The notes beneath the pieces were generated by a model. It saw nothing but the letters and a program-made list of their open reading frames with translations. It was not told the origin of the DNA and did no database searches. A stretch of DNA of 64,000 nucleotides, taken from an uncultured virus (IMG/VR IMGVR_UViG_3300028920_001041). Its lineage: Duplodnaviria > Heunggongvirae > Uroviricota > Caudoviricetes. The stretch lies in IMG/VR virus record IMGVR_UViG_3300028920_001041, one strand, 5' to 3'. Made by a program: the position numbers and the translations under genes. Positions 11,306 to 58,494 of the stretch are shown piece after piece. Positions within the stretch are counted from its first letter, which is position 1, and each line of letters starts with the position of its first letter.

Positions 11306-11719
11306 GTGGAAAAGTTAATGATCGGTCAAATTAACCACAAATATAGAATGTTTATGGATAATACGGGTGGAATTAATACTGTTGAATTGACTTTTCAAAT
11401 AAGAAAAGAATTTCAAAACCACTTTGGTGAAGCAACAGATTATCTTAAACAACAATTCGATAGAAATAGAAAGATGCATAATGGTCAATCGTATAACGAT
11501 AAAGAAATAATGTGTCACTATTTTAAATTAGAAGGATTCAAAGCCGCCGTTATAGATTTTACTCAAGATCATACTCAGCATAAAGGAAGAGATTATCAAG
11601 TCAATCTTATTAGTTATGATGACTATAAAGAACGAACACATATGGTACCGTTTATTAGGTTTTATTGTAACCCCATCGGTATTTACTTATTAGAAAAGAT
11701 CTGGTTTAGGAGTTTATAA
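11306..11719 (+). CDS. hypothetical, paralog family with F...Y.NP.G..LLEK.xF C-terminus
   Basis: ends FYCNPIGIYLLEKIWFRSL. Confidence 0.7.
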   Translation: MEKLMIGQINHKYRMFMDNTGGINTVELTFQIRKEFQNHFGEATDYLKQQFDRNRKMHNGQSYNDKEIMCHYFKLEGFKAAVIDFTQDHTQHKGRDYQVNLISYDDYKERTHMVPFIRFYCNPIGIYLLEKIWFRSL

Positions 11720-11997
11720 TGAATAGTAATTCTATAAAAATTAATCAATGGAGAGCTAAGATTAATCATATATTCTACATTAAACTTGGGAGTATTATTC
11801 AAACCGTATATTATCTAATTAGATATAAATTTAATACGGAGACAATACATGATAAACTCGATCGAATGATAAAGGATGTTAAATACGATCGAAGGAAAAT
11901 GAAGGAGAATCACATAAAAGAAATGTCTGAATTAGAAAAAAGAAAGGAGGAATTGGAGAAAGATATCGATGAAAAAATTAGAGATAAAAGACTTTGA
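11719..11997 (+). CDS. hypothetical coiled-coil protein
   Basis: translationally coupled ORF. Confidence 0.6.
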   Translation: MNSNSIKINQWRAKINHIFYIKLGSIIQTVYYLIRYKFNTETIHDKLDRMIKDVKYDRRKMKENHIKEMSELEKRKEELEKDIDEKIRDKRL

Positions 11998-12394
11998 AAC
12001 AATATGTAATGAGTTTCATAAAAATTTTGTGTCAGATCAATTACAACCAGCTAGGATAGTTGATGCATTAACAAAAACTTACCAATCATTATTTGGTGTA
12101 CCATCTGATGATGTATTAGGATGGGAAAACATGATCAAATGTGGAATATTCGTATGCGAATTTAAATACTTTCAACAAGGAGCTCCTCCACCTAGGGACT
12201 TATCACCTGCTGAATGGCATGGAGTGGTGATTAATGACTTATCACCTGTTGAATGGTATGGGGTGATGTTTAGATGTATTAATAAATCAAGGTCACTGCG
12301 ACCATTTACAAAATCATTACCAGAATTCCTTCACTTCTACGATAACCCAACAGGTTATTTTAGACTTGAACAAATTTATATGAATGATCAATAG
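11969..12394 (+). CDS. hypothetical, same paralog family; internal 39-bp tandem repeat
   Basis: ends FYDNPTGYFRLEQIYMNDQ; DLSP.EW.GV twice (12197, 12236). Confidence 0.7.
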   Translation: MKKLEIKDFETICNEFHKNFVSDQLQPARIVDALTKTYQSLFGVPSDDVLGWENMIKCGIFVCEFKYFQQGAPPPRDLSPAEWHGVVINDLSPVEWYGVMFRCINKSRSLRPFTKSLPEFLHFYDNPTGYFRLEQIYMNDQ

Positions 12395-12403
12395 AGGAGA
12401 ATT

Positions 12404-12601
12404 ATGTTATTCAAATTTGATGGTTATTTACCTATGAAATTAGAGTTCACCTGTAAATGTAGTGCGTGGAGTTGTGTTGATCATCTCAGAACAGATAATT
12501 GTTCAAAAGATAAACCAAAAATTGTTAAGTGTACTAATTGTAATCAAATCGTCAAAGTATGGCAAAAGGATTCGCATTGGCACATGTTAATTGAGGAGTA
12601 A
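12404..12601 (+). CDS. zinc-ribbon protein
   Basis: CKC...CTNC; GAGGAG RBS. Confidence 0.6.
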   Translation: MLFKFDGYLPMKLEFTCKCSAWSCVDHLRTDNCSKDKPKIVKCTNCNQIVKVWQKDSHWHMLIEE

Positions 12602-12603
12602 AT

Positions 12604-12864
12604 ATGGATGAAGTTCAGTATATTTTAGATAAGCATCAAGATTTATTGGATAATGCATTTGCCCTATTAAATGAAACAACAACATTTGATGTTAGACTCA
12701 TTGTGAATCTAATGCATGAACTAAAGGAAAGGAGGGCTAAAGATTGCGAACACGAAATATTTAGTATTAAAAACGAGAAAATTGATTCAGGATTTATGTG
12801 TGCTAAGTGTAACTTGGTGTTTCAACAATTCTTTGGAACAATAAACCTAGAGAAGGAGGAATAA
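12604..12864 (+). CDS. hypothetical protein (CxH...CxxC)
   Basis: ORF with RBS. Confidence 0.6.
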   Translation: MDEVQYILDKHQDLLDNAFALLNETTTFDVRLIVNLMHELKERRAKDCEHEIFSIKNEKIDSGFMCAKCNLVFQQFFGTINLEKEE

Positions 12865-12866
12865 AA

Positions 12867-55970: not shown

Positions 55971-55982
55971 GGAGCAGTACTT

Positions 55983-56840
55983 ATGTTTGACAAAATAACT
56001 CAGTTAATACCAACAATTCAGGGGGAAGGTCCTAAAGTTGGCGTTCCTTCCCTACTGTTAAGATTTAGAGATTGCAATTTAAATTGCCCATTTTGTGATA
56101 CTCAATGGTCTAATAAACACACAAAAGCTAATTTTTCATGGGACGATATCACAAAGTATTTAGATCAATATCCAAACATTGATAATGTTATGATTACAGG
56201 TGGTGAACCTTTCCTCTATGCATCAGAAATAGGTGAAATCGTTTCTGAACTTATTAAGAGAAGAGAAGGTCAAATTAAAACTGTTGAAATTGAGTCAAAT
56301 GGAACACTAATTAACGAAGTAAATTGTTCTAAATTATTTATGGGAGTACCAAGTGGAAAGATTAAATTATCGATTAACATATCTCCTAAACTTGGACCAG
56401 AATGTTACAGCGAAAGTAGATCATCTCCAAGAGATATACTAGCAACATATATGGATAACAGTGGTACATTAAATCGTTTAGTTGGAGCTTCATCATTCGA
56501 CTACATATACAAAATTGTTTATCAAGAAGATTGGAAAGACTATATATTAGAATTTCTTGAAGGGATTCGTTTACCACATGATAGACGTACTCCATCAAAG
56601 AGAATATATATTATGCCGATTAGTCCTGATTATCGGGATTATGATCTTACTGATCCTCAAGGACAATTCGAATTCAGTAATAAATTCAGAAAAAGTTGTG
56701 TTGATGCTGTGCAGTTCTGTATGGAAACAGGATATAAGTTTTCACCTAGAGAACATGTATGGATATATTTAGATGTAAAAAATGAACAAATTGAGGTAAC
56801 ACAAGATGCCGAACGAGAAGATAACACAGATGCTGAGTGA
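55983..56840 (+). CDS. queE: radical SAM QueE-like (7-carboxy-7-deazaguanine synthase)
   Basis: TIQGEG, CNLNCPFCDT, ITGGEP, IESNGT, ISPKL, PREH. Confidence 0.85.
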   Translation: MFDKITQLIPTIQGEGPKVGVPSLLLRFRDCNLNCPFCDTQWSNKHTKANFSWDDITKYLDQYPNIDNVMITGGEPFLYASEIGEIVSELIKRREGQIKTVEIESNGTLINEVNCSKLFMGVPSGKIKLSINISPKLGPECYSESRSSPRDILATYMDNSGTLNRLVGASSFDYIYKIVYQEDWKDYILEFLEGIRLPHDRRTPSKRIYIMPISPDYRDYDLTDPQGQFEFSNKFRKSCVDAVQFCMETGYKFSPREHVWIYLDVKNEQIEVTQDAEREDNTDAE

Positions 56841-57381
56841 TGCTCCCGGACAAGTATCAGGAATAGAAGACACTATTGTTCAGGTAGATAATGAAATCGC
56901 TCAATATCAAGAGGAACAAGATGCTTTACAAGAGGCTCTCGAACAGATATATTCAGAAGTCATACCTGTTCTAAATCCACAATGTGATTTCCTATATCAT
57001 GGTGATGGGTTCTACTCTGGTTCTGGAATAGGTACCATTGATTCTAATATTGTCAATTGGCAATCATTTAATCTGGTATCTAGTCCAGCAACTGGATCTA
57101 ACTACTATGATGTATCTGTTAGTCCTCCAGAACAAAAACCTTATGATCCATTATTGCCCTTTACTCCTTATCAACTTATAACTATTGATGATACAGAGGT
57201 TCAAGATAAATATGATGAATTCTCATTTATCATTGATTCAATCCATCATCCAATGGATTTAAGTGGTACATACGGAACAAAAGCTAATATTGCTATGTTG
57301 AATGGTGGTAAAGGTACATTAAATGCTAATAAGAATAAATTGCTTGATAGTCAAACTAAATTAGCAAGATTTGGAGAATAA
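56806..57381 (+). CDS. hypothetical acidic protein (possibly baseplate)
   Basis: GAGG RBS; adjacent to PAAR gene. Confidence 0.65.
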   Translation: MPNEKITQMLSDAPGQVSGIEDTIVQVDNEIAQYQEEQDALQEALEQIYSEVIPVLNPQCDFLYHGDGFYSGSGIGTIDSNIVNWQSFNLVSSPATGSNYYDVSVSPPEQKPYDPLLPFTPYQLITIDDTEVQDKYDEFSFIIDSIHHPMDLSGTYGTKANIAMLNGGKGTLNANKNKLLDSQTKLARFGE

Positions 57382-57383
57382 TA

Positions 57384-57686
57384 ATGTCTGGTAATTCAAG
57401 AATATCTGATTTGTGGATAGGAGTATGTAAATGTCACGACGATGAAGATGATAAACCAATGATTGGACCAATTATAGAAGGAAGTACAGATGTTATGATT
57501 AATGGAGTTGGGGCAGCTAGAATATTTGACAAAGTAAGAGGTGAATGTGGACATTATGGATATATCATTAAAGCAAGTCTAGACGCTAAATGTAACGGAA
57601 AAGGAATGGCTAGACAGTTTGATGATGTCACAGGTTGTACAGTGGGGAAGATATTAACATGCAGCCACAACTCAAAAACCAATTAG
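57384..57686 (+). CDS. PAAR-repeat tail spike tip protein
   Basis: GSTDVMINGVGAARIFD...CGH, CNGKGMARQFD. Confidence 0.8.
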   Translation: MSGNSRISDLWIGVCKCHDDEDDKPMIGPIIEGSTDVMINGVGAARIFDKVRGECGHYGYIIKASLDAKCNGKGMARQFDDVTGCTVGKILTCSHNSKTN

Positions 57687-58072
57687 ATCTCGTAAGAGAA
57701 ATAGATACAATTCTAATAAATAAAGGAGAATTATATCAATACCAAATTGATGCTCTCAAAAAATTAAAGAAATCTCCTCGATTAGCATTTTCATTTGGTA
57801 GGCAGATGGGCAAAACAATGTTACAACAAGAACAACTTAAAGCATATTATGAGATTATAAATCTGCCTACTTACACCAAAATAATATACCTTAAAAATGG
57901 ATCTTATATATTTGAGATATATGGTTATTTAGGAAAATTTAGATTAAGAAAAGTTAAAGGTAAATGGATGGCAACCAATATCTGGTATATTCTAGAATTC
58001 TTAGATAGAAAACAAGTAAATCAAAAAGTCATTGCAGAAATCGAAAGAGAATTATTTGGAGCGTTAACATGA
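57659..58072 (+). CDS. protein with terminase-ATPase-like N-terminal fragment and C-terminal tag
   Basis: LYQYQ...GRQMGKT; ends IERELFGALT. Confidence 0.55.
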   Translation: MQPQLKNQLDLVREIDTILINKGELYQYQIDALKKLKKSPRLAFSFGRQMGKTMLQQEQLKAYYEIINLPTYTKIIYLKNGSYIFEIYGYLGKFRLRKVKGKWMATNIWYILEFLDRKQVNQKVIAEIERELFGALT

Positions 58073-58494
58073 GCACATGTAATGGTCATGCTACAACAAC
58101 ATTTTGTCCCTCACATCAATTGAACCCAAGAGGATCTCTTGCTCTAAATTCTGGACAACTTGCTACAATTAAACCAGTAAATCCTGTCCATGGAGATTTA
58201 TTCTTAGAACCAAAAAGTAATAAATTAATGGTATGGGATGGAACCGCTTGGATAATAGTAGCTCCTGGAGAAGAAGAAAGCATCATCGACCAATTTGATG
58301 TTGTTACTGATGATGGATTCTTTAAAGTTAAACTTTATGAACATTCGGCAAGTGGTAAGAAGTCAGTTATGATTTGGGATGGAGACGATCTATTTCTAGG
58401 TAGTACAGAAGAATCAGTTGATTTCTTAAAACGTAATCTAAAAGGTAAGTATTATCTTTGGGTAGAAAAACGAATATTAAACTATTTAAGTTAG
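58069..58494 (+). CDS. hypothetical with fibre-like P.NP..GDL...VWDG..W module and C-terminal tag
   Basis: ends VEKRILNYLS. Confidence 0.6.
   Translation: MSTCNGHATTTFCPSHQLNPRGSLALNSGQLATIKPVNPVHGDLFLEPKSNKLMVWDGTAWIIVAPGEEESIIDQFDVVTDDGFFKVKLYEHSASGKKSVMIWDGDDLFLGSTEESVDFLKRNLKGKYYLWVEKRILNYLS

Follow-up and report, generated by a model that had tools for sequence, protein, structure and literature searches.

A 64-kb stretch of DNA from an uncultured virus (IMG/VR record IMGVR_UViG_3300028920_001041), referred to here in its full length as the window, encodes a set of small proteins that finish in the same short peptide: a hydrophobic residue, Glu, then Lys, Arg or Gln and, three residues further on, a second hydrophobic residue, with the Glu standing eighth or ninth from the C terminus. 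We find that this ending, which we call the tag, is kept at a nearly fixed distance from the stop codon, that it is constrained as protein and that it has outlasted much of the sequence around it. The observation is wider than the preliminary description of the window had seen, as it extends to related phages. We tentatively favor the view that the tag serves as a constant C-terminal contact handle on small proteins that diverge fast. Proteins identical to those of the window are encoded on a 306,383-base contig, and the source is therefore an uncultured giant phage.

Position and conservation of the C-terminal tag

Open reading frames (ORFs) were called across the window, and 99 of the 117, those of at least 40 aa with a ribosome-binding-site (RBS)-like sequence, were kept. 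Among these 99 ORFs, the pattern h-E-[KRQ]-x-x-h (h, hydrophobic) occurs 41 times in total, with the Glu at −8 from the C terminus in 13 cases, at −9 in 3 and at −10 in 1. The 16 ORFs with the pattern at −8 or −9 compare with 0.45 expected from the internal rate. When the last hydrophobic residue is Phe, 9 of 11 occurrences lie at −8 or −9, as do 5 of 5 occurrences of LEK..F, and the strict form h-E-[KR]-[ILM]-h-[FLM]-x-x-h is found four times in the proteome, always within one residue of the C terminus. Even the loosest form given in the preliminary description, Glu with a hydrophobic residue four positions later, is seen 21 times vs 4.7 expected. Clustering of the C-terminal 10-mers without any pattern yields a component of 13 members, with 26 pairs over threshold vs 2.4 expected. 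The C-terminal enrichment is far above chance, which answers in the affirmative the position-specific comparison of C termini with background (16 of 99 vs 0.45) that the preliminary description had proposed. That description had listed 20 endings, each under the coordinate at which the ORF bearing it starts, a convention that we follow here. All 20 are present in the sequence; ORFs 49578 and 58069 are weak by sequence, and ORF 33485 has His for Glu.

The carriers, ranging in size from 68 to 309 aa, are better counted as about ten groups. Family A has seven members, five joined directly by BLASTP and two more by alignment, with the common pattern hh-x-F-h-x-x-Y-x-N-P-x-G-x-x-x-L-E-K-I-x-F. Family B comprises three ORFs immediately downstream of the RNA polymerase β gene, and family C consists of ORFs 36004 and 36411, which cross-matches in a relative identify as paralogs. 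ORFs 20446, 26544, 33485, 35745, 49578, 57659 and 58069 are single carriers. The earlier count of 20 unrelated proteins has to be lowered, given that paralogs make up 12 or more of the 19 small carriers (7 + 3 + 2), but it holds between families, where there is no other detectable likeness. Profile comparisons by hhalign between families A, B and C, a family of the relative G003 and a tandem array of the relative G001 gave probabilities <1%, and the few stretches aligned between families are the tags themselves; the input alignments were shallow, with 3–5 sequences for three of the families. The carriers do not all align over their full length, as paralogs of one fold would, a case that the preliminary description had named as a refutation: BLASTP, alignment and, with these shallow alignments, hhalign separate the families. 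None of the 19 small carriers matched Pfam, and of the 18 scanned against PHROGs (ORF 57659 lies outside the 99 scanned), one gave a marginal match (ORF 58069, E 7e-4).

The tag has persisted while the rest of these proteins diverged. In close metagenomic relatives, in which the C-terminal piece of the RNA polymerase β′ subunit (β′C) is 68–82% identical, it is kept on every ortholog found, and it is kept even in ortholog pairs that are 35–39% identical over their BLAST matches. Across six ortholog pairs of small ORFs, 42 of 67 positions are identical in the last 11 residues vs 263 of 576 in the rest; for the most diverged pairs, the corresponding values are 5/11 vs 41/151, 6/11 vs 28/76 and 6/12 vs 22/105. 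The distance between the Glu and the end is maintained in every one of the 23 database homologs found for family A and ORF 26544, the window's own included (18 at −8, 5 at −9). The tag Glu is invariant in four of four family alignments, and in that of family A, with 23 sequences, it is joined past Met1 by just two other unvarying residues, one Phe and one Asn. These sequence comparisons indicate that the tag is under purifying selection.

What is constrained is the protein, with the end of its own ORF as the anchor, because the codons vary synonymously and the distance to the next start is not fixed. In the tags, Glu is encoded by GAA 11 times and GAG 7 times, Lys by AAA 9 times and AAG 3 times, Phe by TTT 10 times and TTC twice, and Leu by TTA, CTA, CTT or CTC, a synonymous usage close to that found genome-wide. 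A GAR codon followed by a Lys, Arg or Gln codon stands in frame exactly 24 or 27 nt upstream of the stop codon 18 times, and this same word shows no peak in its distance to the next start, which begins anywhere from −37 to +289 nt after the stop. The earlier statement that the motif is protein level, anchored at its own stop codon, is thus upheld, and the codon variation and lack of a constant distance to the next gene led us to reject a nucleic-acid signal. A broader alternative places the constraint off the finished protein, either in a DNA or RNA signal for the next gene or in an effect of the nascent peptide on termination or on coupling downstream. The tie to the stop codon would suit it, as would the several carriers that have the RBS of the next gene inside or right after their last codons. 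Given the genome-like codon usage and the unpeaked distances, together with mixed stop codons, gaps of 86 and 289 nt downstream of two carriers and the confidently folded helix predicted for the tag in family A, we regard this alternative as highly improbable.

The AlphaFold2 (AF2) model of family A is confident (mean predicted local distance difference test (pLDDT) score 91, predicted template modeling (TM) score 0.85) and combines helices with a four-stranded sheet and a terminal pair of helices. The tag of ORF 11306 is modeled as helix 124–136 with pLDDT values of 92–97, which points to a packed helix and not a floppy tail in this family. Foldseek found no match for the model in the PDB or BFVD at E ≤ 0.001, and the ESM Atlas gave only TM scores below 0.5 for family A, using the Atlas's own poor model. 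Helical geometry would place the Glu (position 0) between the hydrophobic residues at +4 and +7, within the nonpolar face, and such a placement would be typical of a specific buried contact. By the same geometry, the nonpolar arc should span ~200°, which would be wide enough for one flank to pack against the carrier's own domain with the other left exposed.

The C-terminal end of RNA polymerase β′

The preliminary description considered the presence of the tag on an RNA polymerase subunit to be notable. The polymerase 'tag' is instead the ancient conserved region-H end of β′, the point at which the β′ of this clade stops, and not an appended address; the fold alignment places it at this universal motif and the clade consensus fits it, which corrects a tempting misreading of the polymerase ending. 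In the AF2 model of β′C (pLDDT 85), residues 1–656 superpose on Escherichia coli β′ 414–1356 with a Z score of 23.4, and the model also aligns to Thermus thermophilus 693–1471. Escherichia coli rpoC has the region-H pattern E-[NK]-[VI]-h-h-G-x-h-h-P at 1349–1358, and if the ends of the aligned ranges meet without gaps, Glu649–Leu656 of the phage model would pair with E. coli 1349–1356. The region-H segment comes after the last clamp segment, β′ 1318–1344 (PMC6970531). ENVILGKLIP-type forms are found in 13 of 20 bacterial-type homologs, and the consensus of the phage clade, E-[KR]-[ILM]-[WFY]-[LF]-[G/N/Q]-[KR]-h, fits the region-H pattern. When compared with the form E-x-[VI]-h-h-G-[RKNQ]-h, the β′C of the window has Ser at the usual Gly, and HMMER alignments stop short of the tail.

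More than 100 metagenomic relatives of β′C are known. Among the 120 relatives listed, 99 have [YHFL]-E-[KRQHN]-h-h within the last 40 residues, 73 of them with the Glu at −8 and 11 with it at −9. In nine, the motif stands 10–22 residues short of the C terminus, and a free end is therefore dispensable in some β′ subunits. The non-virion β′C of Bacillus phage AR9 has a shorter look-alike ending, and in two relatives the β′C of the second polymerase has h-E-K-I-V-h near its end; passages of the AR9 polymerase paper (PMC9209446) hold nothing on the C-terminal end of β′. A sequence search of the last 99 residues of β′C against the PDB returned chance-level rows only (E 0.28–0.73), and the β′C hidden Markov model (HMM) showed no extension into the tail of bacterial β′. 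The β′C is split into three ORFs in G003 (L033) and in the relative G005 (L053), and the last piece in G005 carries a 15-residue extension past the region-H motif.

Two multisubunit RNA polymerases are each represented by pieces encoded in the window. The closest likeness of the set 2 β′N is to an AR9 subunit annotated as virion RNA polymerase, and by elimination, therefore, set 1 is probably the non-virion enzyme. The presence of tagged ORFs inside the polymerase gene cluster raises the prospect of mimicry, with the small proteins imitating the last helix of β′ and docking either to the polymerase itself or to whichever component holds this helix. A position-specific scoring matrix (PSSM) from 64 distinct β′ tails indeed puts 7 of 98 other C termini above the 99.9th percentile of internal windows, where 0.2 would be expected, and composition predicts only 0.0014 chance matches to the strict pattern per 99 ORFs. 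In addition, a tagged ORF sits between the β′N and β′C genes both in the window's lineage and in G003, in the latter with the ending MIYEKILFKKL. Mimicry is possible but quite unlikely, however, as the β′ ending is an integral and universal part of the enzyme and the small-protein tails of G001 and G003 score poorly against their own β′ tails (−10.0 and −11.2, respectively), leaving the likeness to β′ in the window's variant only. The tails of the window are also alike among themselves, so that the PSSM enrichment is effectively one motif against one motif. Co-variation of the small-protein tails with the β′ tail of the same genome was not seen in the relatives. Two complex-prediction runs that paired β′N with a family A protein each scored 0.00, which speaks neither for nor against binding.

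Related giant phages and the role of the tag

We compared four related contigs with the window, as the preliminary description had suggested, and found lineage-specific C-terminal versions in the same register in G001 (314.8 kb, complete) and G003 (a 109-kb fragment) and none in G002; G005 (a 60-kb read) has no such tagged set either. The Glu-anchored pattern of the window is found in β′ only in G001 and G002 and in five small ORFs in G003. In G001, the counterpart is h-Q-[KR]-x-x-h; 44 of 514 ORFs place the Gln at exactly −8, vs 0.38 expected, and 2 place it at −9, and pattern-free clustering of C termini returns a 65-member group. Once their last 30 residues are removed, 45 tagged ORFs of G001 fall into 43 BLAST components. 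In G003, 14 of 187 ORFs end in E-L-[YF]-x-[FY]-L-x-h, with the Glu at −8 in 14 of 14 and the pattern found nowhere else, in addition to the five endings of the window's type. The link across lineages is suggestive and not proven; it rests on the shared form and identical register of these sequences. Comparison by hhalign did not connect the G001 family to the families of the window, and a family A protein has no match in the records of five relatives.

An array at 183–205 kb of G001 (L024, L025) contains 31 or more small ORFs in tandem, all from a single hypervariable family. The 31 can be aligned as one family whose members share their layout and close with helix-(D/E)DD-helix. Their Y-K hairpin is nearly invariant and is accompanied by a (D/E)DD turn and a Q-K tail, and the middle of the array is occupied by triplicated ORFs of 320 and 480 aa with conserved ends. 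A Pfam search of 40 tagged ORFs from G001 and G003 identified one with DUF4116 repeats and otherwise two sub-threshold matches only. The former, in the E-L-Y-tailed set of G003 (93717–94193; L035:13717–14193, minus strand), has five such repeats (E 5.5e-42).

In the reading that we tentatively favor, the motif would be the last helix of a short C-terminal end-piece, which in many carriers appears to consist of a helix, a turn and then the helix h-E-K-h-h-F-x-x-h, with the stop immediately after. Selection at the protein level would keep this end-piece on several tandemly arrayed, fast-diverging families of small proteins in an uncultured giant-phage clade, so that variable 'heads' all bear one constant 'handle'. 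Set within a hydrophobic face and exactly eighth from the free end, the conserved Glu or Gln would mark a common contact surface, used either for docking to one partner or for pairing among family members, and the remainder of each carrier would be free to diverge. We infer both the role of the helix as a contact surface and the nature of what it contacts. A function at the chain end is suggested because the strict distance to the free end survived a divergence that erased everything else, and because an invariant polar residue in a nonpolar face is spread over groups that are otherwise unlike.

The chain-end evidence leads us to prefer a contact handle over a purely structural origin, in which the carriers would be remnants of one or a few old families and the terminal helix their slowest-changing folding element, with no shared partner or signal. 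We hold this second explanation to be the less probable of the two, though a real possibility. The arrangement in tandem arrays, the similarity in size and the presence of three evident paralog families are all in keeping with it, as are the modeled integration of the tag helix into the confident fold of family A, the common layout along the whole length of the G001 array and the separate consensus of each lineage. Against it, the chain ends exactly seven residues past the polar residue in nearly all copies (−8 vs −9 in 44 vs 2 for G001 and 13 vs 3 for the window, and −8 in 14 of 14 for G003), even though the rest of the carriers has many insertions and deletions. The invariance of a polar residue in a nonpolar face, the spread in carrier length (68–309 aa) and the lack of profile similarity between families also argue against structure as the sole cause.

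Several points tell against the contact handle itself. The count in the window rests on 64 kb, with the identical proteins on a contig of ~306 kb, and the shallow hhalign alignments leave room for remote homology between families. The G001 array is, by eye, one family along its whole length, and much of the pattern could stem from common descent together with a folding core that evolves slowly. G002, at 285.6 kb and 95% complete, is without such a tagged set. The tag helix of family A is predicted inside a compact, confident fold and need not be free to bind. An HMM of the G001 tail finds none of the window's tails, with 56 matches inside G001 and one outside (E 0.51); since the consensus differs by lineage, sameness across lineages depends on pattern and register only. 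Finally, no partner emerged from the one complex prediction made, that of β′N with a family A protein.

The preliminary description had proposed a C-terminal address for a common hub. The tag fits a common interaction end-piece in being protein level, C-terminal, selected and shared by otherwise unlike families, but the analysis singled out none of the candidate hubs (compartment, virion, RNA polymerase or protease). As a portable address, the tail would send its carriers to the capsid for injection, to a compartment or to a protease. This shares the evidence for the contact handle and suits carriers without known families. We judge it to be somewhat unlikely, given the packed helix modeled in family A, the presence of at least 44 carriers in G001, which is many for cargo, and their absence in G002. 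Moreover, no shell, import or protease gene is linked to the carriers, and because the other polymerase set of the window resembles the AR9 virion enzyme, the tailed enzyme is unlikely to be the one that is packaged.

Carriers, neighboring genes and known systems

The coordinates of the carriers and of the RNA polymerase pieces are given in Table 1. The window has a G+C content of 31–35%, and its plus-strand ORFs are tightly packed, with strong AGGAGG-type sites upstream. A megablast search against phage records yielded no DNA-level match, a single-protein search of viral contigs yielded no close relative and the best protein matches are only 22–27% identical.

Table 1. Tag-bearing ORFs and RNA polymerase pieces in the window, with the coordinates of each ending
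Feature	Coordinates	Strand	Ending (coordinates)	Remarks
Family A ORF, 137 aa	11306–11719	+	LEKIWFRSL (11690–11716)	
Family A ORF, 141 aa	11969–12394	+	LEQIYMNDQ (12365–12391)	Glu at −8 kept in eight orthologs
Family A ORF, 119 aa	15196–15555	+	MEGIIYEVI (15526–15552)	
Family A ORF, 206 aa	15542–16162	+	LEKILFKFI (16133–16159)	Extra N-terminal part
Family A ORF, 128 aa	16171–16557	+	LEKGTIEFL (16528–16554)	
Family A ORF, 116 aa	16566–16916	+	LEKIRFTLGG (16884–16913)	Glu at −9
Family A ORF, 124 aa	19063–19437	+	LEKIMFELS (19408–19434)	L055 ortholog ends LLEKIMIEIS
Single ORF, 68 aa	20446–20652	+	LERKLFRRV (20623–20649)	L055 ortholog ends NIERKLFKEV
RNA polymerase set 1, β′N	25200–26351			
ORF between β′N and β′C genes, 82 aa	26544–26792	+	IEKLFMERIT (26760–26789)	E-K-x-F-M kept in L055 ortholog and in four database homologs besides the window's own protein
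RNA polymerase set 1, β′ C-terminal piece, 656 aa	27031–29001	+	YEKIFLSRL (28972–28998)	Ending is region H
RNA polymerase set 1, β piece	30561–32522			
Family B ORF, 108 aa	32530–32856	+	LEKTIFLLN (32827–32853)	
Family B ORF, 96 aa	32866–33156	+	LEKTIIMMS (33127–33153)	
Family B ORF, 101 aa	33171–33476	+	FEAMIFKLI (33447–33473)	From ATG 33171; TTG at 33153 taken as start in the preliminary description
ORF, 309 aa	33485–34414	+	LHKVVFQRI (34385–34411)	Variant tag, His for Glu
ORF, 83 aa	35745–35996	+	LEQIVFQFL (35967–35993)	
Family C ORF, 134 aa	36004–36408	+	IEREQFDRT (36379–36405)	L057 ortholog 35% identical over an 80-residue BLAST match, ending MIEKEKFKRS
Family C ORF, 82 aa	36411–36659	+	AEKILFDKS (36630–36656)	L057 ortholog 39% identical, ending HVEKRLFEKA
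ORF, 95 aa	49578–49865	+	YERWELKNA (49836–49862)	Weak match, low PSSM score
RNA polymerase set 2, β′N	52765–54078	+		Whole set 2 region 51433–54078
ORF	57659–58072	+	IERELFGALT (58040–58069)	ATG 57659; TTG 57635 also open
ORF, 141 aa	58069–58494	+	VEKRILNYLS (58462–58491)	Weak G003 relative (E 0.006, 26% identity, 123 aa) ends EYERRIFEYF

Near the polymerase genes are several ORFs without a recognized family. Three small ORFs upstream of the set 1 β′N (23783–25133, plus strand) and a 398-aa ORF downstream of the β piece (34416–35612, plus strand) are kept in all relatives and have no Pfam family; ORF 23783–24178 has a weak PHROG match of unknown function. These four ORFs may be further parts of the polymerase. 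A 442-aa ORF upstream of the set 2 β′N is likewise kept in relatives and has no family.

Other genes of the window encode a single-stranded DNA-binding protein (SSB), ligase, exonuclease, helicase, dUTPase and ribonucleotide reductase. The SSB (6404–6889, minus strand) and a 266-aa ORF (42919–43719, plus strand) both terminate in D-D-D-I-P-F, the hub-docking tip of SSB type, and orthologs of the latter in relatives end in DDDIPF, DEIPPF and DAPPF. A further ORF (48140–49393, plus strand) combines PAS and HisKA domains with a response-regulator receiver domain, with no match to an ATPase domain. We also observe a tRNA-Glu (anticodon ttc; 5972–6047, minus strand) that overlaps two listed ORFs and, on the plus strand, genes for an NMT1-like binding protein (13123–13971), a QueE-like radical SAM protein (55983–56840) and a PAAR-like protein (57384–57686).

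Full-text literature searches turned up no account of giant-phage proteins sharing such an ending. The internal proteins of phage T4 are diverse small phage proteins, encoded in variable clusters, that share only a conserved terminal targeting peptide (PMC3012670). The T4 capsid targeting sequence is the nearest precedent, since there, too, a short terminal peptide alone is common to diverse, fast-changing small proteins. The motif described here differs in that it is C-terminal and, for one family at least, is probably a packed helix, and any virion link would be hypothetical. The capsid targeting sequence of T4 lies at the N terminus and is cleaved off by the head protease; the tag, being C-terminal, does not fit a signal of the T4 type.

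The acidic tip of SSB, sliding-clamp-binding motifs and the acidic tails of T7 are also short motifs at the extreme C terminus, borne by many proteins and serving one hub. They are disordered after linkers and have other consensus sequences, whereas the motif here appears helical and is largely nonpolar. Sliding-clamp or PCNA-interacting peptide (PIP) motifs follow Q-x-x-[LIM]-x-x-[FY]-[FY] or Q-L-[SD]-L-F, and the tails of the window fit neither; the SSB tip, an acidic run plus I-P-F, is absent from the tag. Region H of β′ (E. coli 1349–1358) corresponds to the ending of ORF 27031–29001, the fold alignment finishing at model residue 656 and E. coli 1356. It differs in that the phage subunit stops right after the motif, and the likeness covers β′ only and not the small proteins.

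Giant phages contain hundreds of small genes of unknown role, and the tagged share amounts to about a sixth of the ORFs in the window and 9% in the complete relative. If the end-piece marks many small genes, one partner could be sought for the whole set, with the tag as a search key. More speculatively, and in our view doubtful as yet, dozens of hypervariable small proteins in a clade of uncultured giant phages might each attach to one phage or host machine by the same unchanging C-terminal helix, recognized from the free end, and the variable heads would pick different targets. F-box proteins, poxvirus PRANC proteins and the encapsulation peptides of microcompartments and encapsulins combine a variable head with a constant short terminal helix that engages one machine or shell. 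The likeness is one of architecture, and the carriers here differ in having no ligase, shell or compartment gene linked to them. Were such an adaptor system to exist, it would be the phage counterpart of the F-box-like or capsid-targeting families.

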